Of a DNA stretch of 64,000 bases, positions 1-64,000 are shown piece by piece. The notes under the pieces were generated by a model. The model was not told where the DNA came from, did no database searches, and saw only the letters and a list, made by a program, of their open reading frames with translations. The stretch's first letter is position 1, and the number at the start of each line of letters is the position of its first letter. Position numbers and translations under genes: made by a program. The stretch is from a virus: IMG/VR virus record IMGVR_UViG_3300027994_000002, positions 1 to 64,000 of that record. The stretch is one strand, 5' to 3'.

Positions 1-2
1 CA

Positions 3-1229
3 GAATCCGAAGAAGAGATTTCAGCGGCAGAAGCCGAATGGGATAAGCTGCGTGATGCCGAGCTCGAAAACGAGATGGAGGAAATCACGCCCAAGGACAT
101 TGACTTTGTACCTCCGCAAATTGGCGAAGGGGCCTTTTTGAAGCAACCGGATTCTGACTTGGTTCATGAGATTGAAGATAATCAAGAGGAAGAGGAAGCC
201 GAAGAACAAGAAGTCCTCGCTCGATCTCCAGAGCCAACCGCAAAAGAACTCCAGCTTTTGGAAGAGCTTGCCGAGCTCCGCAAAGCCAATCGCGACCTAC
301 GCGAGAGGTACAACGTTGCCTCCAACAAAGACGGCGTGGAGATGGCCCTCGCGACGGTATCCGTGGAGCGGACGGAAAAAGAATGCGCCCTAATTAAACT
401 GGAAGATGCCTGCCGCCAAATCAAGAAGCTGAAAAGCCAGCCTTCCGCCAAGCTTCCTGACTGGCTGGGCCGAGATGTTCGGGTGGCCTTCCCGTGTTAC
501 AAAACAACAAATCCAGCCACTGCCATGGCTCTTGTGGCCCTCGCCCTCGACTTCGGCAAGGAGCGCATCGGCTTTCTTCCTGGCTTAGGGGATGCCCGCA
601 TTGCCAACAGCCGCAACCGCCTTGCGGCGCAATTCCTGGAAACAGGGGCTAAGTGGTGCCTATGGCTGGATGACGATATGATCCCAACCGTGGGTCGCCC
701 GCAATTCACCCGAGACTTCATTGGCGCGACGCCAGAAGAAGTGCCTGACAAGGTGCTCGGCGTGCACGTTCTCGACCGCCTCATGGCCGCTGGGAAGCAT
801 TTGGTGGGAGCCACGTACTTTGGTCGCCGGAAGTATTCCCCGGCCATGTTCAAGGAAGGCATTGACAACCCCATTGCCTACGAAAAGGCCAAGAAGCTCA
901 CAGGAGAAGTGATCCCTTGCGAATGGGTTGCGACGGGCTGCATGCTCGTCCACCGGGACGTCTTTATTGGCATTCAAAACAGGCACCCTGAGCTCGCGCC
1001 TAATGACAAGCGCAAGAACTGGGATTTCTTCCAAGAAGGCGAAGGAGAAACGGGCGGCGAGGACGTCATGTTCTGTCGTCGCGCCAAGGCCGCAGGCTAT
1101 CAGCCCTACGTGGACACCGGTTGCCTCTGCCTACATGTAGGAGCTCAGGTGTTTGGGAATTGGAACACGACCAACCCGCTTATCCGGCCTATCGGAGCAA
1201 CGCCCATGGAAACCAATTGGTGGAAATGA
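3..1229 (+). CDS. GT-A-type glycosyltransferase with N-terminal acidic coiled-coil; 5' end probably outside window
   Basis: Frame is open from nt 3 (first ATG at 75). Contains the DxD-like motif WCLWLDDDMIP and the C-terminal GGEDVMFCRRAKAAGY...HVG pattern typical of GT2/GT-A enzymes. Confidence 0.6.
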   Translation, partial: ESEEEISAAEAEWDKLRDAELENEMEEITPKDIDFVPPQIGEGAFLKQPDSDLVHEIEDNQEEEEAEEQEVLARSPEPTAKELQLLEELAELRKANRDLRERYNVASNKDGVEMALATVSVERTEKECALIKLEDACRQIKKLKSQPSAKLPDWLGRDVRVAFPCYKTTNPATAMALVALALDFGKERIGFLPGLGDARIANSRNRLAAQFLETGAKWCLWLDDDMIPTVGRPQFTRDFIGATPEEVPDKVLGVHVLDRLMAAGKHLVGATYFGRRKYSPAMFKEGIDNPIAYEKAKKLTGEVIPCEWVATGCMLVHRDVFIGIQNRHPELAPNDKRKNWDFFQEGEGETGGEDVMFCRRAKAAGYQPYVDTGCLCLHVGAQVFGNWNTTNPLIRPIGATPMETNWWK

Positions 1230-1483
1230 ACAAGCTTTCCGAACGGTCCCGTTTCATTGAACTTCTTCTCAAAGAAGAGCTGGAGCCCAGGAGCATGGAT
1301 TGGATCGTCAAGAAAGTCTCCACGCATTTCCTCGGCGAGTACAAGCGCAACGGTCAAATCGATTTTCACCGCCAGATCTGGAATAGCGTTTACTCCATGA
1401 CCGCAACGCCGATGAAGCGGCCTAAGCTCATTAAAACACTCAGCCCAGACGGCCTCGCGCTGTTTTCTTACAACCGAAATTAA
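1226..1483 (+). CDS. hypothetical protein (85 aa)
   Basis: In-frame ATG forms an ATGA overlap with the upstream stop. Chosen as an internal start of the 1121..1483 ORF. Confidence 0.45.
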   Translation: MNKLSERSRFIELLLKEELEPRSMDWIVKKVSTHFLGEYKRNGQIDFHRQIWNSVYSMTATPMKRPKLIKTLSPDGLALFSYNRN

Positions 1484-1803
1484 TGCACACCTTCGAGCCC
1501 AAAGACCCCATTGAAGTCATCACGCCACACGGCCCCGGCGTTGTCGTCTATGTGACGGTGTACGGCCCTCATGCTAACGACCTCTGGTGTGTTGCAACCA
1601 AAGCCGACGGCCAACTCCGTCACTATCAGACCATCCAGCTCCGCCTTGCTGAGAGCGGAGTTCTGGAGATGAATGAAAAGCTAGCCGCTGAGCCTGTCTT
1701 TACAGCCGGACAAACAATGGCAATTGCTGAAAGCCAGCGCGCAGGGCACAACTCCAACGTTCCGCAGTGGTTTAGGGATTATGCCGCAAAAGGAAGAGAT
1801 TAA
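1483..1803 (+). CDS. hypothetical protein (106 aa)
   Basis: ORF with a TAATG stop-start overlap to the previous gene. Confidence 0.5.
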   Translation: MHTFEPKDPIEVITPHGPGVVVYVTVYGPHANDLWCVATKADGQLRHYQTIQLRLAESGVLEMNEKLAAEPVFTAGQTMAIAESQRAGHNSNVPQWFRDYAAKGRD

Positions 1804-1804
1804 A

Positions 1805-2122
1805 ATGAAACGAACCAAAGGCAGCACGCGCCCGGAAGACCCAGCCCTCAGCGCACAAGCGGATACAGTCGCGGATTCCATTGCGAAAGCCTTCGATGCC
1901 TGGATTAAGCCCGAGCTCACGAAGATCATCGGCAAAGAGGCAACGGATAAGATCGGCGGCATGGACTTTGATTCGGTCCTCAAACTGAACTACCACATGC
2001 TCTATGTGGATCGCAGTCACATCCAACGAAAGAACGGCGCAACCTTCATTTTCAAGCTCATGCAGGGCATCCCCGGTAACGCCCGTCAAATCGCTAAGAT
2101 GGAGTACAAAATTTATCTATGA
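1805..2122 (+). CDS. hypothetical protein (105 aa)
   Basis: ATG lies 2 nt after the previous stop and is internal to the 1724..2122 ORF. N-terminus reads MKRTKGSTRPED. Confidence 0.45.
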   Translation: MKRTKGSTRPEDPALSAQADTVADSIAKAFDAWIKPELTKIIGKEATDKIGGMDFDSVLKLNYHMLYVDRSHIQRKNGATFIFKLMQGIPGNARQIAKMEYKIYL

Positions 2123-2562
2123 TTAACACAAACGAAAACACAGTCCTTATTATTGGCAAGGCGGCTTCTGGTAAATCCACTCTTGCCTCGAAACTCTATA
2201 AAGAGCATCCGGAATTCCTTCTCTTTCGCAGCGACGACTACATTCATCACGGCTATGAGCAAAGCCTGTACGCCCTCATGGATGACATCACCAAAAATAA
2301 AGGCAAGAAGATGATTATCGAGGGCGTTCAAGGCTACCGCTTGCTCCGCAAGGGCGTGGAGCTGGGGACTTTCACCCCTGATGTCATTTTCATTACAGAG
2401 GCTAGCTTTCAAGAGCGCTGCGCCCGCTACATGAACCGAGGTGAATCTGATAAAATCAAGAAACTTCCGGGTTTTGACAAAAATCTCGACACCGTTTATC
2501 GGGAATACCTCCAGAACCGAACCACGGAACCGCGTACTGTAGAAATTGAAACCGAATTATGA
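2119..2562 (+). CDS. P-loop NTPase / small-molecule or nucleic-acid kinase-like protein
   Basis: Walker A motif IIGKAASGKST near the N-terminus. The 147-aa size fits the adenylate/gluconate-kinase-like P-loop kinase class. ATGA overlap with the upstream gene. Confidence 0.6.
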   Translation: MINTNENTVLIIGKAASGKSTLASKLYKEHPEFLLFRSDDYIHHGYEQSLYALMDDITKNKGKKMIIEGVQGYRLLRKGVELGTFTPDVIFITEASFQERCARYMNRGESDKIKKLPGFDKNLDTVYREYLQNRTTEPRTVEIETEL

Positions 2563-2738
2563 TCAAACTTACTAACATCACCTCCGGGTCTCCGGAAGAA
2601 ATCTATATCTCAGTGGACAAAATCATCTCCGTTTATCCTCTAGAAGGCGGTTCAGGCGTATTTGTAGTAGGCGAAATTGTGTATGGCGTCAGCGAAACGC
2701 CCGAAGTTGTAGTTTCTTTTATCAACAGGACCCTATGA
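2559..2738 (+). CDS. small hypothetical protein (59 aa)
   Basis: Falls below the ORF-track cutoff. ATGA overlaps at both ends bridge the neighbouring genes exactly. Confidence 0.4.
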   Translation: MIKLTNITSGSPEEIYISVDKIISVYPLEGGSGVFVVGEIVYGVSETPEVVVSFINRTL

Positions 2739-3469
2739 ACAAAAAGCCTACAACTCTATTATTGATCCTGCCCTACTGGCGGGAAGATCAGAAGCAGGTC
2801 GAGAAAGTCGCCCGCCTTTGCTCCGACCTCTTGCCTGAATTTGCAGAGAATGCCGAGATCATGCTCGTAACTCGTTACGATGCACCTCCGCCCAGTACCA
2901 GCATCCAAATTGCCCTCCAGCAAAAGTTCAACAAGGTCCATGTGTGGAAGTGCAACCGTGTTGGCGACGGCTTCCCCGGGGGATGCAATGAAATGGCCTA
3001 CGGTATTTTCAACCATGTCCTCACCCAGCGGCACATGAACGCAGGCTTCAAGAATATCGACGTCCTGTTCCTCCTGGAGGGCGATTGCGTTTTAACCCGG
3101 CCAACCTGGCTGGAAGAACTTATCGCGGCCTGGGAGGATCGAGGGGACGGTAAGCACATCGTTGGTACGAAGCAAGACGCCATCCCCGACTGGTCCAATG
3201 ACCATATCAACGCCGTTGCCTTGTACGACCCGGAAATCACTCGTAAATTTCCCTTCCTTGTCGGCGGCCCGCTCCATGTCGGCTGGGACACCTACCACGG
3301 CCCCGCGCTCATCCCCTTCGCAACCGATTCCAAGCTCTTCAAGCTGGACTACAAGCGGCCTTCGATTACCAAGGAAGAACTTTTTGCAAAGGATTTTCCG
3401 TTGGTTTACCACGGTGTCAAGGACAACTCAGCACTTGAGGCCGTACGCAAGAAGTGGATTCTGAAATGA
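2735..3469 (+). CDS. putative glycosyltransferase-like protein
   Basis: N-terminal beta-strand LLLILPYW, a central LLEGDCVL acidic motif in the DxD position, and genomic context among sugar enzymes. No firm family motif. Confidence 0.4.
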   Translation: MNKKPTTLLLILPYWREDQKQVEKVARLCSDLLPEFAENAEIMLVTRYDAPPPSTSIQIALQQKFNKVHVWKCNRVGDGFPGGCNEMAYGIFNHVLTQRHMNAGFKNIDVLFLLEGDCVLTRPTWLEELIAAWEDRGDGKHIVGTKQDAIPDWSNDHINAVALYDPEITRKFPFLVGGPLHVGWDTYHGPALIPFATDSKLFKLDYKRPSITKEELFAKDFPLVYHGVKDNSALEAVRKKWILK

Positions 3470-4035
3470 ATAATCTGCTTAGGCCTTGTTTCTGCGTTTA
3501 CGCCCTGTGTGAGCCGAACTCAAGCAAGGTCCGCTATGTAGGCAAAACATCCAACCTTAAAGGCAGGTTCAAAAGGCACCTAGAAACAAAAGATGAAAGG
3601 AGCCACCTTTATAGGTGGGTGAAAAAGCTTCAGAAATCGGGAAAAAATCCAGAGATAAAGGTACTTCAGGAATGCTTTTCCGACGCAGCCGCTTACGAGG
3701 CGGAAATTTATTGGATTTCAGAATACCTGTCCAAAGGTGAAAAATTGTGCAATAAGACCAAAGGAGGGCTTGGTGCTGTTGCGCTTGGAAAAAGGCCCGG
3801 ATACTGGAATAGGGCGATTTCAAAATCGCGGAAAGGGGTTCCTTGGTCAAAGGAAAACAAGGAAATATTGAGGGATAGCCATATTCTATTGTCTCCAGAG
3901 CAAAGAGCTGAGATTAAAATCCTTAAGAAAACAAATTCCTTGTCTACTTTAGCCAAGATTTACGGAGTAAGTCCGGGAACAATCAATATCGCCGTTCACG
4001 ATTACTACTACCCCAACCGAAAGCAGGACAAATGA
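3466..4035 (+). CDS. GIY-YIG homing-endonuclease-like protein with C-terminal HTH
   Basis: Motifs CVYAL...VRYVGKTSNLKGRFKRH...YEAEIYWISEY match the GIY / YIG / R / E order. C-terminal LSTLAKIYGVSPGTINIAV looks like an HTH. The gene is visibly more AT-rich than its flanks. The start forms an ATGA overlap. Confidence 0.75.
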   Translation: MNNLLRPCFCVYALCEPNSSKVRYVGKTSNLKGRFKRHLETKDERSHLYRWVKKLQKSGKNPEIKVLQECFSDAAAYEAEIYWISEYLSKGEKLCNKTKGGLGAVALGKRPGYWNRAISKSRKGVPWSKENKEILRDSHILLSPEQRAEIKILKKTNSLSTLAKIYGVSPGTINIAVHDYYYPNRKQDK

Positions 4036-4775
4036 ATCCCGGCCTACTAGTTGCAGTCCATTGCTATCAAGGAGACAGGCATCAAGTTGAAATGCTGCTG
4101 CCGTATTTCTGTCACCACGAGGCACCCGTTGTCATTGTTTCCCCAGTTGATTCTCAGGTTCACTATATCGGTCCTCATCACACTAAATGCGCTGGACTAG
4201 TCCAGTATTTCGGCCAAAAATCTTGGGATAGGCAGTACGCCCAACTTAAATTACTACTGATTGACTACCCGGAAATAGAGTGGTTCCTGCTTAATGATGC
4301 AGATAGCTTTTGCCTCACGCCGAAGCTGCCGGATTACCTATTTGAAGACAAATACACTGTTTATTCAAATGAGGTGGAAGACTTCAGGAAGCCTGGGGGC
4401 AACACGTTTACTCCCCCCGGCATGGATTATTGGCCCCTAGACTACCACGCAGGCTTTGACCTCGTCGCCATGCAGCCCCCTTATTTCCTATCCAGGCAAG
4501 CACTCGAAAAAATTGTGGAAACCTGCGAGGGCATGGCCGCCTGCCCAACAACCCCATTTATTGATTGGTGGTGGATACCTGCTTGCAAGAAGGCGGGACT
4601 AAAACACCTTCCATTTAGAACCGGAGCTTCCTGTGAAACCGTCACGCCTAACGGGAAGGCCTGCATGCGCTCTGCGATCCTTACTTCGGGAGCCACCTTC
4701 ATCCATGCCGTCAAGGATCAAGAAGCCTTGAACGGTGTTTTGACGGCCCATTACGAAAGAACGACAAAACCATGA
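4032..4775 (+). CDS. putative glycosyltransferase-like protein (DxD motif)
   Basis: WFLLNDADSFCL is DxD-like, the N-terminal strand is LLVAVHCYQGD, and the context is sugar metabolism. The assignment is weak. Confidence 0.35.
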   Translation: MNPGLLVAVHCYQGDRHQVEMLLPYFCHHEAPVVIVSPVDSQVHYIGPHHTKCAGLVQYFGQKSWDRQYAQLKLLLIDYPEIEWFLLNDADSFCLTPKLPDYLFEDKYTVYSNEVEDFRKPGGNTFTPPGMDYWPLDYHAGFDLVAMQPPYFLSRQALEKIVETCEGMAACPTTPFIDWWWIPACKKAGLKHLPFRTGASCETVTPNGKACMRSAILTSGATFIHAVKDQEALNGVLTAHYERTTKP

Positions 4776-4897
4776 ACAAAATCGACTGGCTGGGAGTTTT
4801 CTTCGCTTGCCTTGGCGTTTCGGTTGTTACTCCGATCGCACTTTCCAGCCTCTACCTCTGCGTCCTGATTGTTATTGAAATCTGGAAATGCCTATGA
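4772..4897 (+). CDS. small hydrophobic membrane peptide (41 aa)
   Basis: Sequence MNKIDWLGVFFACLGVSVVTPIALSSLYLCVLIVIEIWKCL. ATGA overlaps at both ends. Confidence 0.4.
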   Translation: MNKIDWLGVFFACLGVSVVTPIALSSLYLCVLIVIEIWKCL

Positions 4898-5814
4898 AAA
4901 AAATGCTGATCACAGGCCACAAGGGCCTCCTTGGAAGTGCCTGCGTGCGGCATTTTAAGGGTAAATGCGAAATCATCACCGTTGCGGGAGATTTAAGGGA
5001 CCCCGGTGTTCCTCGACATTGCATGAAATGGAACAAGCCTGACATTGTCATCAATTGCGCGGCCAAAGTAGGCGGCGTGAAGGCCAATCGGGATCATCCC
5101 GTGGAGTTCATGCTTGATAACCTGCGCATCCAGTCCAATATGATGGAAAGCTCGCACGATTACGGCGTGGAGACCTTCATCCACATCGCCAGCTCCTGCA
5201 TGTTCCCAAAAGATGCCGCCCTACCGGTCCAAGAAAGCAGTCTTTTCACGGGCAAATTCGAGGATAGCGTGGAAAGCTACGCCCTGGCCAAAATCGCAGG
5301 CTGGAGGCTTGCCAAGGCCTATTTTGAGCAACACAAAGACCGCTTCTTGACCGTTGCGCCGTCCAACGTCTACGGCCTCAATGATTCTTACGGCGAGCAA
5401 GCTCACGTCATCCCGGCCCTCATGCGAAAGTACGCGGAAGCCTGTAAAGGCGGAGCTCCCTTTGAAGTCTGGGGCGTTGGCGATGCGGTTCGTGAGTTCA
5501 TCTTCGCGGACGACGTTGCTTCGGCGATTGAAGCCGTCATCAACAAGTGGAAAACGCCCGAAATTGTCAGCATCGGAACCGGCATCGGCACCAGCATCCG
5601 CGACCTTGTCCTCACGATGATCGAGGTTGCGCCCTTGGAGCTCAAGCCTGCCCCTCACATTGTTTGGAACGCCTCGCAGCCCACGGGCATCCCTAGGAAG
5701 GTTTTCGATGTGTCTAAAATCAAGAGCCTAGGATGGGAGCCTCAAACAACCCTGGAAGACGGCCTACGCCTGACCTGGCGGGACTTCCTCAAAGGAAAGC
5801 CGAGGGGCACGTGA
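4894..5814 (+). CDS. fcl: GDP-L-fucose synthase (GDP-4-keto-6-deoxy-D-mannose 3,5-epimerase/4-reductase)
   Basis: Motifs ITGHKGLLGSA (Rossmann), NCAAKVGGVKANRDHPVEFMLDNLRIQSN, SSCMFPK, and YALAKIAG (YxxxK), with a length near 306 aa. These are classic Fcl/WcaG SDR features. Confidence 0.85.
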   Translation: MKKMLITGHKGLLGSACVRHFKGKCEIITVAGDLRDPGVPRHCMKWNKPDIVINCAAKVGGVKANRDHPVEFMLDNLRIQSNMMESSHDYGVETFIHIASSCMFPKDAALPVQESSLFTGKFEDSVESYALAKIAGWRLAKAYFEQHKDRFLTVAPSNVYGLNDSYGEQAHVIPALMRKYAEACKGGAPFEVWGVGDAVREFIFADDVASAIEAVINKWKTPEIVSIGTGIGTSIRDLVLTMIEVAPLELKPAPHIVWNASQPTGIPRKVFDVSKIKSLGWEPQTTLEDGLRLTWRDFLKGKPRGT

Positions 5815-6113
5815 ACAGAGATACGCCCTACACCGCCAATCAATGCGCGGATTTCCTTAGTAAAGACAGGAATCGAATTTTAGGCCTAATCCAAAAGGAG
5901 GTCGCAAATCCTGCCTGCGGAAATTTCAAGCCAGTCCGGTACGAATTTGAAGTTGGTTCAACCGTAGGTGAATTTAAGAAAGACTACATTGAAGCCACGG
6001 AATACCTGAAAATCCTATGCGCACACCTTCGATTTAGGCCAAAAGAAGCAACCGTTCTTTGCCTCTACGACTTCAGCGCGCTTAAAACTAAAATCAGGTA
6101 TGAACTGAAATGA
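5811..6113 (+). CDS. hypothetical protein whose N-terminus resembles the N-terminus of the putative capsid protein
   Basis: GTGA overlap start. YTANQCADFLSKDRNRILGLIQKEVA aligns with ITPAQVSDFANKDSNRLIGKIAEVLA in the 6972 gene. Confidence 0.45.
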   Translation: MNRDTPYTANQCADFLSKDRNRILGLIQKEVANPACGNFKPVRYEFEVGSTVGEFKKDYIEATEYLKILCAHLRFRPKEATVLCLYDFSALKTKIRYELK

Positions 6114-6304
6114 ATATCGAGGACTACGACATCGTTCAAGAGGCCGACGAGGAAAAGCTCAAAGAATCCGTTAAACGCATGATGAAAGAAGGATGGGAGC
6201 CTATCGGCGGCGTATCCGTGAATCAATACAAATACATCGGCGAATACGATTATCAAAACCACTACCGAACGGCCTATTGCCAGGCCATGATCAAAACAAA
6301 ATGA
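6110..6304 (+). CDS. small protein, DUF1737-like
   Basis: YDIVQEADEEKLKESVKRMMKEGWEPIGGVSV matches my recollection of the DUF1737 pattern (..L...V......GW.P.GG). ATGA overlap. Confidence 0.45.
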   Translation: MNIEDYDIVQEADEEKLKESVKRMMKEGWEPIGGVSVNQYKYIGEYDYQNHYRTAYCQAMIKTK

Positions 6305-6441
6305 GCGATAAACTCCAGCGATGCCTAGAAGCCGCCGGAGTCTTCATTATCCTCGCCTATTGGGAAGCCCCCAAGCCTTACCTAGCCCTAGTGATCGCCG
6401 TCCATGTAATACGGGAAGCGATTTTTGATTCGAGGAAATGA
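6301..6441 (+). CDS. small membrane protein (46 aa)
   Basis: ATGA overlaps at both ends. Hydrophobic core AAGVFIILAYWEAPKPYLALVIAVHVI. Confidence 0.4.
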   Translation: MSDKLQRCLEAAGVFIILAYWEAPKPYLALVIAVHVIREAIFDSRK

Positions 6442-6743
6442 AATCTAAAAGACAAATTGCCTACAGCGAATATCTTAAAAGCAATCACTGGCAAACTTTC
6501 AGGACGATAGCCCTGATATCCCACGGCTACAAGTGCGCTCATTGCGGCTCCACGAGCAAGCTTCAAGTTCATCACACGCGATACCGATCCTCATGGGAGG
6601 ATGTTCGGGTAGAGGACGTGCAGGTCTTGTGCCGGAAATGCCATAAAATGGAGCATGGAATTTTTAAGGGAAAAGGGCGTAAGAAAAGAAGGAGCACAAT
6701 GAAACGAATCAGGGCCTTAGAAAAGAGTTTTGGAATAAAATAA
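6438..6743 (+). CDS. HNH endonuclease
   Basis: YKCAHCGSTSKLQVHHTRY...VLCRKCHKMEH gives the CxxC...HH...CxxCH HNH/zinc architecture. Confidence 0.75.
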   Translation: MKSKRQIAYSEYLKSNHWQTFRTIALISHGYKCAHCGSTSKLQVHHTRYRSSWEDVRVEDVQVLCRKCHKMEHGIFKGKGRKKRRSTMKRIRALEKSFGIK

Positions 6744-6971: not shown

Positions 6972-8180
6972 ATGGCGGACTGCATTACCCCGGCGCAAGT
7001 CAGTGACTTCGCCAATAAAGATTCCAATCGTCTCATCGGCAAAATCGCCGAAGTCCTGGCCCGTAAGTCCCCCTACATGGACGTCATGGATGGCGGCACC
7101 CTACCCAACGTGAGTGACGTCGTTCGCTCAGTTGTTCAGGAACGCGCTGTTGTCGGCACCTCCCTCGCCAATCCGACCTTCCAGCCGGACATCGAAATGT
7201 GCGCAGGCCCAGTCAGTCAGGATAACGTCGGCAGCACGGAATACAGCTTCCAGCTGGAATCCATGCGCGGTCAAGGCCCCCGTGTTTGCGTCAAGCAATC
7301 CCGCACGGCCTTTAAGGGCTCCTATCTTCAGGCGCAGCAGAGCCTCGAAAAGGCCATCCTGCAGATCATGAACTCGGATAACCGGGCTCAGCTCCTGTAC
7401 CGTTCCGGCGTCAAGTTTAACGTGAACACCAACTACGGGTTCAGCACGGATCTGACGGGCGACATGCAGCAGATCAACACCTTGTTCCTCAACGTCCTCC
7501 CTAACGCGCCGCTGAGCTTCAAGATCGTGAAGCTGTTGAGCCAGTTCCTCGTGAACGAGATGCTCGCCGATCCTTATACCACCAACGGCATGGGCGAGAT
7601 GTTCAAGTTCATCGGTTCCATGGACATCATCGAACGCTTCCGCGACGAGCTCGACATCAAGGCCGACATTCGCGCCCTGACGACGGGTCAGTACAAGCTG
7701 GGCGAAAAGTCCATCGCGGGCTACCAGTTCGAGGGCCCTTACCGGGGTATTGGGTTTGGAGTCGACAGCCAGCCGCTGCGCTTCAACACGATCACCGGAG
7801 GTATTCCTAACTTCATTGAGCCTGAGATCGGCGTTGTAACCACTCGAGGCGTCGCCGCCCGCCGCAACCCCGCCTGGGTTCAGGCCTTGTACGAGGTCGC
7901 GTTCCTGTCCGCCCCTGGGGCCTTCAAGCGGCTTGTGCCGGAACAGTATACCGGCGAAGGCACGTTCAAGTTCAACCCGCAGCTTGCCATGGGCGAACTC
8001 AAGTGGCACTACGTTCTGGATAATGATTGCAATCGCTTCGGTGATTTCGGTCAGCACATTTACCAGATCAGCCGAGCCATTCAGCCCGTGCGTCCGCAGA
8101 ACGTGATTCCCATCATCTACGCCCGCTGCCCGTACGACCTCGCTACGACCTCTTGCGGTTCTAGCTCCATCGGCCTGTAA
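6972..8180 (+). CDS. putative major capsid protein
   Basis: A 402-aa ORF that opens the structural block. It has long intergenic regions on both sides and a strong hairpin right after the stop, and fibre genes follow. The call rests on size and position only. Confidence 0.55.
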   Translation: MADCITPAQVSDFANKDSNRLIGKIAEVLARKSPYMDVMDGGTLPNVSDVVRSVVQERAVVGTSLANPTFQPDIEMCAGPVSQDNVGSTEYSFQLESMRGQGPRVCVKQSRTAFKGSYLQAQQSLEKAILQIMNSDNRAQLLYRSGVKFNVNTNYGFSTDLTGDMQQINTLFLNVLPNAPLSFKIVKLLSQFLVNEMLADPYTTNGMGEMFKFIGSMDIIERFRDELDIKADIRALTTGQYKLGEKSIAGYQFEGPYRGIGFGVDSQPLRFNTITGGIPNFIEPEIGVVTTRGVAARRNPAWVQALYEVAFLSAPGAFKRLVPEQYTGEGTFKFNPQLAMGELKWHYVLDNDCNRFGDFGQHIYQISRAIQPVRPQNVIPIIYARCPYDLATTSCGSSSIGL

Positions 8181-8251: not shown

Positions 8252-10366
8252 ATGCCCGATTATCCCCTATCTCAGTTGGCAGGCGCGGACAATATCATGC
8301 TCCGGCGGATTCTTTTCGCGCTCATGAACAACGGCGCGGCAGGGCTTGCGCCCGAGCAAAGCAGCAACACGCTCCTGAGGCAGATTCTTTACGCCATTCA
8401 AAACCAACAGGGCGGAGGCGGAGGCGGGGGCGCGATAACTCTTTCAGGAGATGTTTCGGGATCTTCTAGCGCCAATACCGTAGACAAGATCGCAGGCGTA
8501 ACTCCGGCTACTGGAGTCCCTGCCGCCCTAGGAATCGCGCCGAATACAGCGGGCGGATTCCTTACGGTCAACAGCAACGGCTATTCCAGCCCAAGCGTCT
8601 CGCAGCCTAATTCCAATTTTCTGCTACTAGGCTTTAACGGGGCGTTCTTGAGTGGATACGAGCGATTTCAACTGGTTGCTTCTGGCAATGGAACCAGCTG
8701 GAAAGAGATTCGTGGTTGGGAGAAGTACAATCCAACCGTTCCTCCAGATAGCGCGGGCTATACCTGCGGCGTTCGCGACCCCGCCATCATTCATTTCCCC
8801 AATGGAACCTACCTCGTAGGCCACACCATTTCCCGCAACAACACCGTTGGCTCTTCCGGCGCAGGCTCCACGAGTGGCTACATTGGATTCGCCAAGGCAC
8901 AAAGCCTTTCCGCTCCCTTGACGTTTGTTGCCAATATCGACACAAGCAGCGCAATTGCCCCCAAGTTTCTCTACACATTGGACGGCCGCCTCTATGCGGA
9001 TTGCTACGGCTATCTGATCGAGAACACCTCGCGTACAGGCGGCTATCCTGACGGCGTGACGTGGACGGCGCGAGCCATTATCACGTGGGTCGATGGAACC
9101 GTGATGAACACGAGTGACCAGTGTCAGATCCAGACCGCCGCCAATTCTTTTGGCGTGTTTTATTGGAGGAATGGGGCGGGATTTGTGTACCGCATTGGCA
9201 CGAGCAGTTCGGTTGGCTCGGGCTATACCGATCAAGGCATCATTACCAATTGGCCCACAGCAGAAGGCGTGTCCGTTAGCCAAGATACGACGACAGGCAT
9301 CTGGTACGCCTATTTTCAGGCCCGATCAGGCACCTACAACGGCAAGACCGTTGTCTCCACGAGCTCGACGCCGCTTGTCGCGGCTTCCTGGACAGCCCCA
9401 GTTCCACTCGATAACGTCACCGTTTCACCTGCGACCATGGGGTCTAATCCTGTGGCAAGTTTTGACAATGCAGGCTCGCTTATTAGCTCCAACGCCTCTG
9501 TCATGCTGGATGTACTCAACGCCACACAGCAACAGGAATACGCCTATTGGAGTGGGCCTGATTCTCCTCCTCGGCTGACCTATAACACTTCCCAGAATTA
9601 CAGTTCCATCAACGTGGTTTACCCGACGGGTGAAGGCACGGTAGCGATCAATAATGGCGTTGTGACAGGAACGGGGACGCGATTCCAGAAGCGGTTCCAG
9701 GTTGGATCCCTCCTCATCACGGCATCTCGTACAGGCATTGTCCGGGCCGTTGCCTCAGATACCTCTATGACGTTGCTCAGCAGCAGCAATTACACTGTTG
9801 CGGCGGGAGCGGCCTACACTTACGCACCGCCCTTGACTCAGGTCAGCACCTACAACGGCAATACGGTGGTTGGTTTTGATGATGCAATCACGGGTTATGT
9901 GTGGAGGAACGGCGTTGCTCTATTCAATGTAAGCGGCGCGGGGTTCATGCCGCTTATCACGACCGATTCTTCCGGAAATCTTATTTTACAAAACATCTCC
10001 GTTGGAGGCGGTGGCAGCTACGTCTACGGCAGGTTCCTGACGAGCGGCGGCAACTTCGAGATCATTACAGGAAATCTTGCTGTCGCAACAGCAGGCAAGG
10101 GCCTTCAGATCAAAGAAGGAACGAACGCCCGCCAAGGCGTTGGAACCCTTGTTGCTGGAACCCTCACTGTGGCCAACACCAGCGTTACCGCAAGCAGCCG
10201 CGTCATCGTCTGGCGAATGGGGAAAAATGCTTCTTCGGCCATTGGGGCCCTGGATACAACAATCAGCGCGGGGGTTGGATTTACAGTTACCTCCTTGACC
10301 AACCTCGCCGCAACCGCAACAGGAGATGTCAGTAGCTTTGGTTATCTTATCACAGAAGGAATCTAA
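8252..10366 (+). CDS. tail fibre / spike-like virion protein (704 aa)
   Basis: A duplicated N-terminal motif ([12 protein letters not shown] / [12 protein letters not shown]), a G7 linker, and [21 protein letters not shown], which is fibre-like. The central region contains VRDPAII, reminiscent of beta-propeller glycosidases. Confidence 0.55.
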
Positions 10367-10367
10367 C

Positions 10368-11237
<870 letters not shown>

Positions 11238-21769: not shown

Positions 21770-22587
21770 TGGACGCTCTCGCCAATGACCCCGTTCTGCA
21801 AGGCAAGATCAACTCGGCCGCACGAGTGATTGAAAAGTGCCTAGAGGTCTACAGAAAGCCCGCAATCCTATGCTCTTTTGGCAAGGATTCGCTTTTAATG
21901 CTCTACATGATTCGGAATTATTGTAGCGTGGATTTGCCTGTCGTTTTTTTCAAGCAACCGCACTTTGCCCGCAAGTTTGCCTTCGGGGATAAAATGGCCG
22001 CCGAACTTGAATTGGAGGTTCATTCCAATATCCCTCCCTTCGGCATCAGCTTGACCAGCAAAAACGGCAAGTCAGAATTGGTTCATCATTTTAGCCTGGG
22101 CAAGCAAACGCTAATGATGCCATTAGGCGTTCAGAGCATCGAAAGCAAAGCAAAGTGGCTGTGCGCGACGGAATCGTTGCTCTCAGGTCCATTTGGGACG
22201 TTTGGCTGGCCCTGGGACGTTGCTTTCTGCGGGCATAAAAGCTCCGACGTTGACCCCCTTCAGGGGCAGGTCCCGCTTTCCGTTGACATTCATCAAATTG
22301 AGGGCTCCTGCCACCTCGCCTACCCGCTGAGGCATTTTACAGATCAGGATGTCTGGCGGCTGACCAAAGCCTGGGATATTCCCGTCAATCGCTTGCGGTA
22401 CGGGAACGCGGATCAGCCTCAAGACGATACGGAGAATTATTTCAACGAAGACTATTTTCCTTATTGCATGAAATGTTGCGATCCCAATCAACCCGATTTT
22501 GTGACTTGCCCTAAAACGGGATTGGAGGTAACAAATATCCATCGCTCCATTCCTCAAATTGACCCCAAAAAAGCCTACTGCTCATGA
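21769..22587 (+). CDS. PAPS-reductase / PP-loop ATP-pyrophosphatase family protein
   Basis: PAILCSFGKDSLLMLYMI matches the SGGKDS PP-loop context of the PAPS_reduct family. A Cys-rich C-terminus is present (CMKCCD...CP). Confidence 0.7.
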   Translation: MDALANDPVLQGKINSAARVIEKCLEVYRKPAILCSFGKDSLLMLYMIRNYCSVDLPVVFFKQPHFARKFAFGDKMAAELELEVHSNIPPFGISLTSKNGKSELVHHFSLGKQTLMMPLGVQSIESKAKWLCATESLLSGPFGTFGWPWDVAFCGHKSSDVDPLQGQVPLSVDIHQIEGSCHLAYPLRHFTDQDVWRLTKAWDIPVNRLRYGNADQPQDDTENYFNEDYFPYCMKCCDPNQPDFVTCPKTGLEVTNIHRSIPQIDPKKAYCS

Positions 22588-23006
22588 ACCCAAAAGCACC
22601 CGATAATCGCGTTGACCTTGGCGCCCAGGCCCGGCAGGCCGAGCAGCAAAGAATTCAGCAGCAGCAGATGTGGCAAGCCGAACAAGAAGCCACGCGACAG
22701 GCGCAAATGGCCCAAGAACAGCAAGCCGCCGCCTCTGCTCTTCAATCCCAACAGCAGGCGACCGCGCAACAGGCGCAATTCGACGCCATCAACGCCGGGC
22801 AAGGTTCCGCAGCCAATGCAACAGGCGGGGCCTCCGGCATTAAGGCCGCAAACACCGCCTTGACCAATTCTGCGGGAATGAGCCCGGAGCAAATCAAGCT
22901 TCAGGCCGCCGGAATTGCCTCCGACCCTAATTCCATTCAGAACCTCGCGGCCCGCAAATCCCAAGGCGGACTCTTGAGCTCCAGTAACGTCAAGCTCGGT
23001 GGATAA
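22584..23006 (+). CDS. Q-rich coiled-coil protein ending in VKLGG (paralog A)
   Basis: MNPKAPDN...QQRIQQQQMWQAEQE...SSSNVKLGG-stop. ATGA overlap. Confidence 0.5.
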   Translation: MNPKAPDNRVDLGAQARQAEQQRIQQQQMWQAEQEATRQAQMAQEQQAAASALQSQQQATAQQAQFDAINAGQGSAANATGGASGIKAANTALTNSAGMSPEQIKLQAAGIASDPNSIQNLAARKSQGGLLSSSNVKLGG

Positions 23007-23033: not shown

Positions 23034-23447
23034 ATGAATCCAGGAACACCTAAAGACAATTCCGGTCAGCTATACGCCCAGCAGGCCGCTCAACAGCAAG
23101 CCCTCCAGCAACAGCAATGGGTTCAAGAGCAACAGGCGGCTCGTGCCAACGAACAGGCCCAACTTGCTCAAAAGGCTCAAGAGCAAGCCGCCTTGGAAGC
23201 TTCCAATAAACTCGCGGAGCAAAAGGAAGCTCAGGAAAAACTTATCCAGCAACAGCAGCAGGCGGCGGCCACCGCAGCGACTCCTTACCTGAATTCAGGA
23301 ACAGCAACCGGCCTGAAGGCCATTAACGCCGCCCCAAACCTCGTTGGGGAGGCTCCAGTTGGAGGCTTGCCCGGTTTCAATGCCGTCGCCAATAAAGCCA
23401 AACAAGGCAACTCACTCGCCGCAACCAGTGTCAAGCTCGGAGGCTAA
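23034..23447 (+). CDS. Q-rich coiled-coil protein ending in VKLGG (paralog B)
   Basis: MNPGTPKDN...QQQALQQQQWVQEQQ...ATSVKLGG-stop. Same ends and composition as the 22584 gene. Confidence 0.5.
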   Translation: MNPGTPKDNSGQLYAQQAAQQQALQQQQWVQEQQAARANEQAQLAQKAQEQAALEASNKLAEQKEAQEKLIQQQQQAAATAATPYLNSGTATGLKAINAAPNLVGEAPVGGLPGFNAVANKAKQGNSLAATSVKLGG

Positions 23448-24950
23448 ATGGAAGTCCAAATCCAAAATCTTTCCAGGCCTTCCAATGGAATTCCCGCGAT
23501 TCTTCCGTTGGCCTATCTTGCGCCCGGGCAAATCGGGGGCCCTGATAGCGGCGTGGAGGCTTTTGGCGCGGGCATCAAAGAAGGCCAAGCTGTCGTTGCT
23601 CCACTTGCGGAAATGGGCAACTATTTGACGCAGTATTCTTCTCCAGAATCCGAAGCAAAAAGGAAAGCGGCGATTGCGCAGGCGGGCCTAGTGGAAACAA
23701 CCGCCGGACAGGAAAACGAGGCCGCAAAAGCCACCCCAGACTTGCCTTTGGCGCAACGCCAATTCCAAGGGGAGCAAATTGCCTCCGGCCGCACCCTGCT
23801 CCCGGCTCAGACCAATTTGGCGCTGGCTCGCATGGATTCTGAGGGCCGCATTCTTCCCGCGCAAACCGACTTAACCCTGGCAAAGATTGGCTCGGAAGCG
23901 CAATTACTGCCCGGGCAAACCGAGGCCAGTGCGGCGGCCAATAGAGCCGCTTTACTCAACGCCAACAACGTTCTCAGCACGACGCCCTCTTACGCGCCAA
24001 ATATGACGCAGGATGAAATCATGCGCAATGAGGCCGCGAAGAAAGGGGCCTTAAGCCAAGCGGGATTCCAGAGGGAAGTTGCCATTGCCTCCAATCCATT
24101 CCTCGCCTCCGATGGCATCACGGCACCGGAGGGCAAGTACGTTTCTAATGGGAAACTTTTGGAAGACACCGTGACTCAGCGGAACGTGCAGGGAGAAGAC
24201 GGGAAAATTTACATCCAGAACGTTTGGTCTCACTCCGGCAAGCCTGTCAGCTACCTGCAAGATCAACTTTCTGGAACCAACGCAACAATCGAAGCCGCAA
24301 ACGAGAGGCAGGGAAGAGGTATTGCCGCTCGCTCGCCGACGTACGGGGCCGAGGGGGCGCAAGTCACGCTCACGCCCGCTGAATCCACACAAACCAACAA
24401 GGCCATTCAAAATTTCAAAGGCCGAGGCGACGTTCAGGCGGTAGTCAAGATTACTCCTTTGGTGGATCGGGCGTTGTCTCAAATCAATGCTTCCAGGGAC
24501 GCCAAAACAGGTCTCGTTTCCGTGGACGCCATGCTTTCTGCCGCCCGCGCTTTCCGAGGCCAGGTCACAGATTCCGAAATGAAACAATTGAGCAATGCTG
24601 GAGGCTTGCAGCAAAACCTCTATCAGCTTTTCCATATTCTGGACGGTAAGAAATTTGACGAAAGAACAATGTCTGACCTGACGGCCTCTTTGTTGGCCGT
24701 GCGCAAAGAAGGCGATGAGTTTCTCAATAACCGCATCTTGCCCGATTTCAAGAAATCCCTGCCATTGAATGCTCGGCCTATTGCCGACGATCTTTTTGGT
24801 CAAGTGGCCTATCGCGACGCTTCTCACGGCGAGCAGGCAGCGCAACCCGGAGAGCCGCCGATCATCGCGGATAAAACCGCTTACGACGCGCTTCCCAAAG
24901 GAACTCCCTATCGGGCTTCCGACGGCCAACTCTACATCAAGGGTCAATAA
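23448..24950 (+). CDS. hypothetical internal/ejection-type protein (500 aa)
   Basis: Three tandem 18-aa repeats (LLPAQTNLALARMDSEGR / ILPAQTDLTLAKIGSEAQ / LLPGQTEASAAANRA) at about 23800-23940. Stop-start overlaps on both sides. Confidence 0.5.
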   Translation: MEVQIQNLSRPSNGIPAILPLAYLAPGQIGGPDSGVEAFGAGIKEGQAVVAPLAEMGNYLTQYSSPESEAKRKAAIAQAGLVETTAGQENEAAKATPDLPLAQRQFQGEQIASGRTLLPAQTNLALARMDSEGRILPAQTDLTLAKIGSEAQLLPGQTEASAAANRAALLNANNVLSTTPSYAPNMTQDEIMRNEAAKKGALSQAGFQREVAIASNPFLASDGITAPEGKYVSNGKLLEDTVTQRNVQGEDGKIYIQNVWSHSGKPVSYLQDQLSGTNATIEAANERQGRGIAARSPTYGAEGAQVTLTPAESTQTNKAIQNFKGRGDVQAVVKITPLVDRALSQINASRDAKTGLVSVDAMLSAARAFRGQVTDSEMKQLSNAGGLQQNLYQLFHILDGKKFDERTMSDLTASLLAVRKEGDEFLNNRILPDFKKSLPLNARPIADDLFGQVAYRDASHGEQAAQPGEPPIIADKTAYDALPKGTPYRASDGQLYIKGQ

Positions 24951-39807: not shown

Positions 39808-39811
39808 AACT

Positions 39812-63270: not shown

Positions 63271-64000
63271 ATGGCCGAAACCGCCTATCCAAACGACGCA
63301 GGCCCAATCGTCGACCCAAACACGTTAGAGTTCCGGCGGGCCATCACGTCGGTGGAAATGGGCTATTCGGTGATTAGTCGCTTGAAGCAAGACAGTTGGT
63401 ATCGCAATGAAAAACAGGCCGCGATCATGCGGAAGTACAACGACGAGCCGCCGTATCAGCAAAACAAACTGGACGCAGCCAATCAGGGGTGGCGCAGGAA
63501 CGCTTCCACGGGATTTCTATCCTCGATGATCAAGAGGATTCTACCCTCTTACAATCAGGTCGTCGATAAGGCCCAATACCTGACAGCCTCCCGCTTTCCA
63601 ACCAGCGACGTCCAGATTCCCGACGTTCAACAAAAGCAAACCGATTTCCAATTGGAGGTCACGAAAACCATTCGCTCGTGGAGCGGTTGGCAGGCCTTCA
63701 AATCCCAGGTCATTCTCGAAAACCTGCTCTTTGGCTTCTCTGGCGCGGGGTGGACGGATGAGATTACCTGGGAGCCCCGTTTTCTTCGGCAGGATGAAGC
63801 CTATTTTCCAGACGGCTGCGGCCAGGAAGCCAAGAAGGTCCCCTTGTGGTGCTTGGATCAGGCCTTCCAGATCCACGAGATGGCCGAATATCTGATCAAT
63901 CCCGAAGCTAGTGCGGCGGCAGGCTGGGACATCGACAACATTGTCATCGCGATCAATGATTCCAAGCCGGAGAATCGCCTGAGCGGCACCAACCCGGACG
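63271..64000 (+). CDS. large protein, 3' end outside window; possibly the portal protein
   Basis: ATG 63271 immediately follows the previous stop. I translated the frame by hand to nt 64000 and found no stop. The ORF track does not list it because it does not terminate in the window. The portal call is only positional. Confidence 0.55.
   Translation, partial: MAETAYPNDAGPIVDPNTLEFRRAITSVEMGYSVISRLKQDSWYRNEKQAAIMRKYNDEPPYQQNKLDAANQGWRRNASTGFLSSMIKRILPSYNQVVDKAQYLTASRFPTSDVQIPDVQQKQTDFQLEVTKTIRSWSGWQAFKSQVILENLLFGFSGAGWTDEITWEPRFLRQDEAYFPDGCGQEAKKVPLWCLDQAFQIHEMAEYLINPEASAAAGWDIDNIVIAINDSKPENRLSGTNPD

Follow-up and report, generated by a model that had tools for sequence, protein, structure and literature searches.

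The DNA analysed here, a window of 64,000 nucleotides, is a permutation of the circular contig L001 of an uncultured phage, whose full genome of 68.7 kb includes 4.7 kb beyond the window. From its left edge a chain of genes, all on the plus strand, leads from a glycosyltransferase candidate (g1) towards the gene of a 402-aa putative major capsid protein (Table 1). As the preliminary description had proposed, the genes of this chain overlap: 12 of the 14 junctions from g1 to the HNH endonuclease gene share 4 nt in ATGA-type fashion. No terminator signal above chance was seen along this operon, and a single gap of 228 nt comes before the 402-aa gene. The sugar-related block ends at 5814, 1.16 kb upstream of the 402-aa gene, close to the 1 kb first estimated. 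Both homing endonucleases had been missed at that stage; the GIY-YIG gene g8 sits as an insertion between g7 and g9, and is missing at that site in the relatives L004-L006. Fibre-like genes, one of them collagen-like, lie shortly downstream.

Table 1. Features of the glycosyltransferase block and its surroundings (window coordinates)
Feature	Position	Strand	Description
766-aa portal-size gene, 5' part	63271..64000	+	Runs past the right window end (mapping to L001)
g1	1..1229	+	Last 1229 nt of the gene (1479 nt in full)
g2	1226-1483	+	Small protein, no assigned function
g3	1483-1803	+	Small protein, no assigned function
g4	1805-2122	+	Small protein, no assigned function
g5	2119..2562	+	Small P-loop NTPase, kinase-sized, accessory
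g6	2559..2738	+	59 aa, no assigned function, not membrane-like
g7	2735..3469	+	GT-A fold glycosyltransferase, GT8-like (predicted structure)
g8	3454..4035	+	GIY-YIG homing endonuclease, C-terminal HTH (Pfam GIY-YIG 9.5e-12; phrog_314 8.5e-17); start at 3466 in the contig's own gene call
g9	4032..4775	+	GT-A fold glycosyltransferase, GT31-like (predicted structure)
g10	4772..4897	+	41-aa hydrophobic peptide; also among the contig's own gene calls
g11	4888..5814	+	Fcl-like GDP-4-keto-6-deoxy-D-mannose 3,5-epimerase/4-reductase (GDP-L-fucose synthase), from Pfam, NCBIfam, PDB and motifs; start at 4894 in the contig's own gene call
g12, g13 (DUF1737), g14	5811..6441	+	Small proteins, no assigned function
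HNH gene	6438..6743	+	Homing endonuclease, directly 5' of the 402-aa gene; matches phrog_119 (9.6e-12) and numerous further HNH families
402-aa gene	6972..8180	+	Putative major capsid protein (position, size, conservation), proposed acceptor
Ser/Thr-rich tail codons	8145..8177	+	TTSC-GSSSIGL at the C-terminus of the 402-aa protein, proposed O-glycosylation site
TAGT-like glycosyltransferase gene	41478-42314		PF20691, E 0.0024

Among the smaller products, no Pfam or PHROG match was found for g2, g3 or g4, which are kept in the closest relative, L004, at 42%, 83% and 43% identity. The gene g5 had been taken for a P-loop kinase. Only its Walker A loop matches, every match falls under the Pfam and NCBIfam cut-offs apart from a marginal one to RNA_helicase, and it was not found in the related loci examined. 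A plural set of small membrane peptides had also been reported; one stands, g10, which alone in the block looks membrane-like (Kyte-Doolittle 19-residue maximum 2.31).

The earlier identification of an Fcl gene is borne out. The g11 product, an SDR, matches Pfam Epimerase at 4.7e-46, its top 18 PDB matches are all GDP-L-fucose synthases (e.g. 7ll6 at 3e-69 and E. coli 1bws at 3e-56) and it keeps the motifs GHKGLLGSA (residue 10), SSC (102), YALAK (131) and HVIPAL (173). Its best NCBIfam match is GDPFucSynFcl, full length, at 274.9 bits, which is below the equivalog cut-off of 500. The statement that Fcl is unusual in phages was overdrawn, as homologues turn up by tblastn in 112 phage records, most of them from cyanophages. 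The gmd gene is indeed missing from the window, and a search for it elsewhere in the phage genome found none in the remaining 4.7 kb of the circular contig. With no gmd in the phage genome, GDP-4-keto-6-deoxy-D-mannose must come from a host Gmd. The supply of substrate to Fcl would thus hinge on the host.

The first glycosyltransferase candidate, g1, had been given a start at 75 and called a clear GT-A enzyme with a DDD motif and an acidic N-terminus. In fact the gene runs off the left edge of the window and encodes 492 aa, of which the N-terminal extension of about 245 aa is disordered, acidic and partly helical and precedes a GT2-like catalytic domain with the motifs WLDDDMIP, GTGCMLVHR and GEDVMFCRRA...H. 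The DDD residues (D307-D309 of the full protein), E437, D438 and H462 are invariant in the family alignment. The motif and the acidic region therefore stand, but the word 'clear' does not: all Pfam matches, to Anp1/GT62 and GT2, are sub-threshold, and Anp1/GT62 matches among homologues are also weak (11/33 and 10/31). By its motifs g1 is a putative GT2-like glycosyltransferase, though not a clear one by database standards. At E<=1e-3 its representative homologues number 14,985. The disordered region holds a short conserved motif, [S/N/D]PF[G/A], that looks like a docking peptide for some partner. An N-terminal HTH occurs in some homologues outside this phage family, and in none of the family's own g1 proteins.

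The two weaker candidates, g7 and g9, have no family match at the sequence level, yet their predicted structures are confident (pLDDT 95.9 and 96.7, respectively) and Foldseek places them among GT-A glycosyltransferases, with 374 and 151 PDB matches at E<=1e-3. We therefore regard both as predicted GT-A folds. The best PDB matches of g7 are chondroitin synthase (1e-8), glycogenin, XXYLT1, LARGE1, GlyE and WrtF, and its BFVD matches are viral GT8-like proteins. The PDB entry of GlyE names it no more closely than a glycosyltransferase of Streptococcus pneumoniae; its substrate is a serine-rich repeat protein. For g9 the matches include B3GNT2 (5.8e-7, TM 0.61-0.65), COLGALT1 and the PBCV-1 capsid glycosyltransferase A64R (2p73). 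The family alignments show E115-x-D117 (LEGDCV) and a C-terminal YHGVKD motif to be invariant in g7, and D89-x-D91-S92 (NDADSF) in g9, so that DxD-type motifs are invariant in each of the three glycosyltransferase families. Hydropathy reveals no membrane segment in g1, g7 or g9. With a real Fcl and two of three glycosyltransferase candidates having GT-A folds by structure, the original description of a sugar-nucleotide and glycosyltransferase block is upheld.

What might this block modify? Virion proteins, host surface glycans and a TET-generated DNA base had been offered as targets, with no choice among them. The comparison of related loci favours the first, through the block's conserved position, the hypervariability of the island and its co-variation with the tail of the neighbouring protein. 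In 74/74 related loci with both anchors the genes follow one another as portal-size gene, p425, g1, variable island and 402-aa gene. The 766-aa gene at the start of this order has no family match, so the label 'portal' rests on its size and position. In the capsid-family contigs g1 is present wherever enough upstream sequence exists, and most loci have larger islands; g1 is a core gene of this phage family. The islands of relatives encode GT34, Nucleotid_trans, DUF5672, DUF6492/Stealth_CR2, the g7 family (seen in 23 related islands), g9, Fcl and three kinds of SAM methyltransferase. The block in the window thus looks like this phage's own form of a glycan-synthesis island that is hypervariable across relatives and lies within a late structural operon.

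The 402-aa gene is the most conserved of the module, at 50-84% identity in more than 80 loci. Its product has no match in Pfam, PHROG, PDB or GenBank phage and no detectable capsid homology, and from its position, size and conservation we infer that it is the major capsid protein. It has the most Ser/Thr-rich C-terminus among about 80 ORFs of the window, with none comparable found on the others, structural ones included. The window itself is a weak example, with 3 Ser in the tail, and the closest relative, L004, has 2. Across relatives, 42/44 loci whose islands carry extra genes encode a 402-aa-type protein with a Ser/Thr-rich tail beyond its last Cys, against 0/28 with minimal islands; the Fisher p of 6e-18 is descriptive only, because the tail and island classes were set after seeing the data and the contigs are related. 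One locus, L082, is an exception to this pattern. When the tail is trimmed off and the rest of the protein placed on a neighbour-joining tree, 4 changes of island state are counted (3-5 across 60 bootstraps), and a tail change coincides with an island change 3-5 times. Every clade with small islands is nearer to a big-island protein than to another such clade. Wherever the tail is present, so is the g7 family or an unrelated island family, c1. In a more distant relative, L091, the putative capsid protein is 43% identical and ends in a Thr-rich tail (TTLTDATV), and the gene order is g1-like, Gmd (60% identical to a cyanophage Gmd), Fcl, HNH, g9, g7-like and the capsid-like gene.

These patterns suggest that the block serves to O-glycosylate the Ser/Thr-rich C-terminal tail of the putative capsid protein, a reading whose chances we put at about even, and that the sugar added is probably fucose. 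In the mechanism we infer, as regards acceptor, sugar, division of labour and biochemical activities alike, the tail of the capsid subunit (...C-GSSSIGL in this phage) would receive a short O-linked glycan from soluble phage GT-A enzymes during virion assembly. The candidate for work on the Ser/Thr tail is g7, which would act on or near the peptide. The best candidate fucosyltransferase is g9: in capsid-family islands it is always found alongside fcl (the window, L004, L005/L006 and L091), and in jumbo-size contigs its paralogues occur together with Gmd/Fcl-like genes. Fcl would feed g9 by turning host-supplied GDP-4-keto-6-deoxy-D-mannose into GDP-L-fucose. If this is true, a single phage enzyme diverts a host intermediate into a virion sugar.

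Rather unlikely, in our view, is a glycan made for the virion or the assembly stage whose acceptor lies elsewhere, e.g. on fibres, the portal, p425 or another site of the capsid protein, with the co-variation of the tail being indirect. Since relatives lacking the tail still retain g1 and the island family c0, some other acceptor must exist for g1 at least; its docking-like motif and the fibre-like genes just downstream are also consistent with such an arrangement. Against this, no feature was found to track island content other than the tail of the 402-aa protein, and a comparable Ser/Thr-rich end was not seen on other ORFs of the window.

Modification of the host cell, rather than of the virion, is an unlikely role. 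Here LPS, capsule or S-layer glycans would be remodelled, e.g. to block superinfection or aid release, and the virion would stay undecorated. Sets of Gmd/Fcl and glycosyltransferase genes are common in cyanophages, with no known virion glycan there, and an Fcl without Gmd implies that the phage is closely tied to the sugar-nucleotide metabolism of its host. LPS cores are also products of GT-A enzymes of the peripheral, soluble kind. However, specific support is missing: no Gtr-like or other membrane component accompanies the three glycosyltransferases, which lack membrane segments, the genes lie within a late structural operon and not in an early or lysogeny region, and the co-variation of the tail would be left unexplained.

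The genome also encodes a TET/JBP dioxygenase (Pfam 3.3e-26), in the replication module 35 kb from the block. It is adjoined by its own TAGT-like glycosyltransferase and by kinase-like and nucleotidyltransferase-like genes, a set that could make up a complete pathway by itself. According to Pyle et al. 2023, phages use pairs of a glycosyltransferase and an epimerase to modify DNA with di- and trisaccharides, and clusters of this type can also be found near structural genes; intact hypermodification pathways are mostly clustered. The 80 capsid-family contigs, 19 of them 58-71 kb long, include none of the 65 IMG/VR contigs that encode TET relatives, although g1 and mostly larger islands are kept there; this is a weak negative, as the TET search was pattern-limited. 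A second tier of glycosylation on the sugar of a TET-made 5-hydroxymethylpyrimidine, possibly late during packaging, is thus very improbable despite the dioxygenase and the HTH of some distant g1 homologues, given the separate TET neighbourhood and the lack of an HTH in this family's g1.

The proposed O-glycosylation of the capsid tail can be compared with several known systems. The Gmd-Fcl-fucosyltransferase clusters of cyanophages, e.g. Synechococcus phage S-SKS1, share an Fcl (38% identical) with glycosyltransferase genes close by. However, cyanophages pair Gmd with Fcl whereas this phage has no Gmd, and the S-SKS1 cluster lies among auxiliary genes (tRNA genes and a phosphate-transport gene), not beside a putative capsid gene. 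The chlorovirus PBCV-1 encodes GMD and GMER. It resembles this phage in having GDP-fucose pathway genes and GT-A enzymes, which in PBCV-1 act on the major capsid protein, and its A64R matches g9 structurally at 4.8e-6. In contrast, PBCV-1 belongs to the giant viruses of eukaryotes and has a double-jelly-roll capsid, atypical N-linked glycans and its own GMD; here a 68.7-kb phage has Fcl without GMD, and its glycans would go onto a Ser/Thr tail at the C-terminus. The TET/5mYOX-associated DNA glycosyltransferase clusters (TAGT; Pyle et al. 2023) likewise combine GT-A enzymes, sometimes with a sugar epimerase, in TET-encoding phages. Their glycosyltransferases adjoin the dioxygenase, a spot that the separate TAGT-like gene holds in this genome, while the block belongs to the late operon, 35 kb distant.

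A parallel in acceptor comes from mycobacteriophages (Che8 and others), which encode glycosyltransferases and reportedly bear glycans on the C-terminal ends of their capsid and tail-tube subunits (Freeman et al. 2023, Cell Host Microbe, as quoted in PMC12619734; PMC11256854). The phages, likely hosts and glycosyltransferase families are all unrelated to those described here. According to PMC11256854, the mycobacteriophage glycosyltransferase genes are near the 3' end of the genome, whereas here they form a hypervariable island within the head-gene operon, and no counterpart of the modified tail-tube subunit was found in this window. The mycobacteriophage modification was shown by experiment, while here it is proposed from sequence comparison, in which the Ser/Thr-rich tail tracks the extra glycosyltransferase genes. 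Sugars on the tail of a capsid protein have so far been demonstrated only in phages of mycobacteria.

The 402-aa protein encoded just after the gene block, the putative major capsid protein, has 102 relatives in IMG/VR, 80 of which were retrieved (50-61% identical), and more on metagenome contigs. Gene order is the same in all 74 loci that have both anchors: the portal-size gene, the gene for a conserved 425-aa protein (p425), the glycosyltransferase (GT) candidate g1, a variable stretch of 0.83-4.9 kb and the 402-aa gene. This constancy makes g1 a core gene of the module. Judged by gene content, g2-g11 of the window is one version of a hypervariable island. Its commonest families are c0 (57 loci) and c1 (39 loci), both without a Pfam match, the family of the GT candidate g7 (23 loci) and a SAM methyltransferase (Methyltransf_11/23, 21 loci). 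GT34 (Glyco_transf_34), Nucleotid_trans, DUF5672, DUF6492/Stealth_CR2, Methyltransf_21 and Methyltransf_24 genes occur in a few loci, and c11, an unannotated family of 371 aa, in three. From their motifs c1 may be GT9-like and c0 may have a DXD motif; hhalign found no relation of c0, c1 or c6 (a further island family) to g1, g7 or g9.

The third GT candidate, g9, and the GDP-L-fucose synthase-like gene g11 (Fcl) always occur together: in three of the retrieved loci (L004, L005, L006), in the window and in L091, a 73.9-kb contig whose 402-aa homologue is 43% identical. At the same site L091 carries, in order, a g1-like gene, two unknowns, Gmd, Fcl, an HNH gene, g9, a g7-like gene and the capsid-like gene. 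Its Gmd, directly upstream of Fcl, is 60% identical to a cyanophage enzyme, and its Fcl and g9 show 47% and 60% identity. Homing endonuclease genes are found in both phages, of the GIY-YIG type inside the window's island, of the HNH type just upstream of its putative capsid gene and of the HNH_3 type as an insertion in L091. They may help to move island cassettes between phages.

The end of the capsid-like protein varies together with the island. Most homologues end in C-STSSTGL or a near variant, and others stop after the Cys (V, VIP) or in xTGL. Among the window's roughly 80 ORFs, no C-terminus is richer in Ser/Thr than that of its 402-aa protein, TTSC-GSSSIGL, and the L091 homologue ends C-TTLTDATV. 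For classes set after the data had been seen (tail present, three or more Ser/Thr following the last Cys; big island, one with any gene besides c0 or c11), 42 of the 44 big-island loci have a tail and two lack it, and all 28 minimal-island loci lack it. The Fisher p of 6e-18 is descriptive only, because the loci share ancestry. A neighbour-joining tree built from the 402-aa protein minus its tail shows four changes of island state (3-5 over 60 bootstrap replicates), and the tail state follows them; the four small-island clades each lie nearer to some big-island protein than to one another. Every tail-bearing locus has a c1 or g7-family gene.

The identity of the 402-aa protein as a capsid protein is putative and rests on its position. 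A tblastn search of 50,697 GenBank phage records was empty even at E<=10, Pfam, PHROGs (13 homologues searched) and the PDB (profile of the capsid alignment) gave nothing, and the source annotations are empty or 'hypothetical'. The portal-size protein likewise has no match in Pfam, PHROGs or the same phage records. Directly downstream of the 402-aa gene lie a 704-aa protein with a K1-lyase_C/polysaccharide-deacetylase-like C-terminus and tail-fibre similarity, then a collagen-repeat protein, which suggests fibres recognising polysaccharide. The lineage comprises more than 100 IMG/VR contigs, with no cultured relatives detectable by sequence. We had suspected an N4-like affinity from protein sizes and a 2501-aa giant protein, and the search gave this no support; the giant protein, searched against the phage records only, has matches to hypothetical proteins that cover some 5% of it (Ralstonia phage phiRSL1, 5e-8; Listeria phage LIS04, 6e-6). 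MAG bins hint at a host among the Chthoniobacterales (Verrucomicrobiota), although they are inconsistent (Chthoniobacter, Terrimicrobiaceae, also Peribacteraceae, Microbacteriaceae and Rhodoferax). Elsewhere in the window, VKLGG is the shared end of two neighbouring structural-region ORFs, each about 140 aa long, which may stem from a tandem duplication that kept this C-terminal motif, and two separate ORFs have a near-identical C-terminal motif, CHLRWDV[D/K]HGFI[T/S][L/I]A, which suggests a paralogous domain.

Window 1-6743 is a single plus-strand gene chain with 4-nt ATGA-type overlaps at 12 of 14 junctions from g1 to the HNH gene. The sole sizeable gap, of 228 nt, lies directly before the 402-aa gene, and a promoter and terminator consensus scan gave no signal exceeding shuffled sequence. 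Circularly permuted, the window maps to a 68,861-nt MEGAHIT contig (ENA ERZ27228661 k141_1536959, here L001), with window position 1 at L001 10251 and position 64000 at L001 5530. Coordinate arithmetic gives 64,141 as against 64,000 nt, which fits a 141-nt terminal overlap. The 4.7 kb outside the window hold most of the 766-aa portal-size gene, an RNA ligase gene, two small ORFs, p425, a 54-aa ORF and the first 108 codons of g1. The RNA ligase gene, between the portal-size gene and p425, is absent at the corresponding site in relatives.

Coordinates of the features discussed (window positions unless L001 or L091 is named)
Feature	Position	Strand	Remark
g1	1-1229	+	truncated at window edge
g1 N-terminal extension	1-735		within window
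g2-g4	1226-2122	+	small unknowns
g5	2119-2562	+	P-loop protein
g6	2559-2738	+	
g7	2735-3469	+	predicted GT-A fold
g8	3454-4035	+	GIY-YIG homing endonuclease, Pfam 9.5e-12
g9	4032-4775	+	predicted GT-A fold
g10	4772-4897	+	41 aa, hydrophobic
g11	4888-5814	+	Fcl-like
Three small ORFs	between g11 and HNH gene	+	
HNH endonuclease	6438-6743	+	homing endonuclease
402-aa protein	6972-8180		putative major capsid protein
704-aa and collagen-repeat proteins	8252-11237		
First VKLGG ORF	22584-23006		
Second VKLGG ORF	23034-23447		
Giant protein	24950-32455		2501 aa
MazG-like pyrophosphohydrolase	39343-39807		TET neighbour
TET/JBP dioxygenase	40585-41481		
TAGT-like GT	41478-42314		PF20691 E 0.0024, sub-threshold
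Protein with APH-like kinase motif	42305-43024		HGDFTLENL
Protein with nucleotidyltransferase-like N-terminus	42973-43656		'LILPCAGQSSRH'
First CHLRWDV ORF	46005-46589		
Second CHLRWDV ORF	57919-58350		
Portal-size protein	63271-64000; L001 4801-7101		
RNA ligase	L001 7439-8056		Pfam RNA_ligase; phrog_548 3.5e-25
HNH_3 homing endonuclease	L091 6456-7010		

The preliminary description had presented g1 as a clear GT-A enzyme with a DDD motif and an acidic N-terminal extension. The motif and the acidity stand. Since 108 codons lie beyond the window edge, however, g1 has 492 aa, not 384, and its assignment is less clear than was claimed. All 33 homologues keep D307, D308, D309, E437, D438 and H462, which we take to be the GT2-type DxD and (G)ED...R...H motifs. 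Pfam matches are sub-threshold only (Anp1/GT62 the best at 1.9e-4, in 10-11 of about 32 homologues; single GT2 matches) and PDB profile searches gave no match. A profile search of 1.84 billion representatives collected 14,985 family members at E<=1e-3 and no bridge to a curated GT model. The extension, of about 245 aa, is Pro-rich at 1-85, very acidic at 86-170 (net charge -23) and charged and probably helical at 171-245. Across the g1 genes of the window and of L004-L088 it varies from 61 to 272 aa, is disordered and keeps near its start a short [S/N/D]PF[G/A] motif that might serve for docking; in other phages, the homologues of g1 have an N-terminal HTH_3/CII-like domain instead.

For g7 and g9, described earlier as two weaker GT-like proteins, structure prediction alone was informative: by sequence (phmmer and family profiles) neither has a match in Pfam, NCBIfam, PHROGs or PDB. 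Both families are metagenome-only (25 and 98 clusters), and the models were built from their alignments. The g7 model (pLDDT 95.9) has 374 PDB matches at E<=1e-3. Nearly all of the best 50 are GT-A enzymes, and the query TM-score reaches 0.66. The matches include chondroitin synthase (1e-8), glycogenin, XXYLT1, LARGE1, COLGALT1, GlyE and the WrtF fucosyltransferase, and the model also resembles viral GT8-like proteins. The g9 model (pLDDT 96.7) has 151 such matches, led by B3GNT2 (GT31; TM 0.61-0.65) and including COLGALT1, the PBCV-1 capsid glycosyltransferase A64R and GT6 enzymes. In g7, E115 and D117 of LLEGDCV, apparently an ExD variant of the DxD-type motif, are invariant in 25 homologues; in g9, D89, D91 and S92 are invariant in 35. 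On these confident models, g7 and g9 are GT-A fold glycosyltransferases. The two may be distant paralogues: hhalign aligns them over their full length with the motifs lined up, a weak match (E=0.008, probability 5%). It found no relation between g1 and g9. On jumbo-size contigs, g9 paralogues lie among genes for Gmd/Fcl-like epimerases, UDP-galactopyranose mutase and DUF5672. Two smaller parts of the block were overstated: g5 has a P-loop but is rejected as a defined kinase, as it matches other proteins through the Walker A loop only, and of the membrane peptides g10 alone is hydrophobic and membrane-like.

The Fcl claim we accept as probable. The protein matches Pfam Epimerase (4.7e-46), and its best full-length family is the NCBIfam GDP-L-fucose synthase (NF047922, profile positions 3-304 of 308), at 274.9 bits, below the equivalog cut-off of 500. 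Its best 18 PDB matches are GDP-L-fucose synthases without exception (7ll6, 3e-69; the E. coli enzyme, 3e-56). The Rossmann GxxGxxG NADPH-binding motif (GHKGLLGSA, residues 10-18) aligns with its counterpart in 7ll6, and SSC 102-104, YALAK 131-135 (YxxxK) and HVIPAL 173 (HV(I/L)PAL) are conserved in that alignment. They presumably correspond to the E. coli Ser-Tyr-Lys triad S107/Y136/K140 and the C109/H179 acid/base pair for 3,5-epimerisation. On these motifs g11 is probably an extended SDR of the Fcl type. The Gmd-Fcl-g9 order in L091 supports the assignment and ties g9 to fucose synthesis. Contrary to the earlier remark, such genes are no rarity among phages, since 112 phage records hold homologues, chiefly cyanophages. 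One of these, S-SKS1, pairs Fcl with Gmd. Run with its Gmd on the window and on the rest of the circular contig, tblastn gave only a weak cross-match, to fcl itself; the phage is thus without gmd altogether. Either Gmd was lost in the window's lineage or it was gained in that of L091.

The most economical reading of these genes, which we consider about as likely as not, is that the island builds an O-glycan on a C-terminal tag of the putative capsid protein. Host Gmd would provide the 4-keto intermediate for Fcl, and Fcl would feed a fucosyltransferase; because it co-occurs with Fcl, g9 is the leading candidate for this role. As an example of such a tag, the tail in the window is weak. Moreover, g1 and c0 persist in loci without a tail and must therefore have another acceptor there, so that a virion target other than the tail, above all for g1, is a serious alternative.

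Remodelling of host-cell glycans by the block is a less probable reading. It would leave the co-variation of the tail unexplained, and the block is without membrane machinery: Gtr-type serotype-conversion cassettes have a membrane GtrA flippase, a GtrB bactoprenol GT and GtrC, whereas the block has no such Pfam matches and g1, g7 and g9 have no membrane-like segment. A second tier of DNA glycosylation on the TET-generated base is unlikely, given that TET lies in the replication module about 35 kb away, that the position adjoining TET, where the GT of TET/5mYOX-associated clusters sits, is held by a TAGT-like gene different from the block's GTs, that such hypermodification pathways are usually clustered according to Pyle et al. 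(2023), and, as a weak negative, that none of the capsid-family contigs is among the 65 IMG/VR contigs with TET relatives. Those 65 contigs came from an alignment-based scan; single-protein TET scans had found no relatives in IMG/VR and two in JGI metagenomes, and DnaB failed as an anchor for the co-occurrence test. The TET region (39343-43656), which also holds a 277-aa unknown, itself looks like a self-contained DNA-sugar cassette. No C5-methyltransferase was seen near TET, so the substrate may be thymine and not 5mC.

An O-glycan on the capsid tail would have consequences beyond this phage, and we offer the finding as a directly testable lead, not an established fact. With somewhat less confidence than in the reading for the window, we suggest that an uncultured lineage (>100 contigs, ~58-74 kb), possibly infecting Verrucomicrobiota, may use a serotype-like island between a core GT and its capsid gene to swap GT, methyltransferase and sugar-nucleotide cassettes, placing diverse O-glycans on a C-terminal Ser/Thr tag of its capsid. 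If true, this would be the first system of virion glycosylation beyond the actinobacteriophages and a capsid counterpart of O-antigen diversity, in which the window's phage has a host-dependent fucose branch. Its coding form would be recognisable by a core GT, then a variable island and then a capsid gene with a tag, and the island would evolve through cassette exchange, like surface-polysaccharide loci. If the capsid is decorated, the trait would be widespread in environmental phages, beyond actinobacteriophages, and Fcl without Gmd would be a clean example of how a virus can divert a host sugar-nucleotide intermediate with one enzyme. What would a sugar coat on the capsid bring to a phage that has no immune system to face? 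Stability and adhesion are candidates, as is escape from recognition by the host or by grazers. Could a short C-terminal Ser/Thr tag be a portable glycosylation handle?

Chloroviruses glycosylate their virions and encode their own GTs and GDP-fucose enzymes. Among phages, virion glycosylation has to our knowledge been demonstrated only in mycobacteriophages (2023), where it shields the particles from antibodies. A limited literature search found no report of virion glycosylation outside actinobacteriophages, or of a head-operon island of glyco-genes co-varying with a capsid tag. The mycobacteriophage glycans are reported to sit at the C-terminal ends of the capsid and tail-tube subunits (Freeman et al. 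2023, quoted in PMC12619734; PMC11256854). The locus studied here may be of that type: it encodes GTs, and its putative capsid protein has a Ser/Thr-rich tail that co-varies with the island genes.
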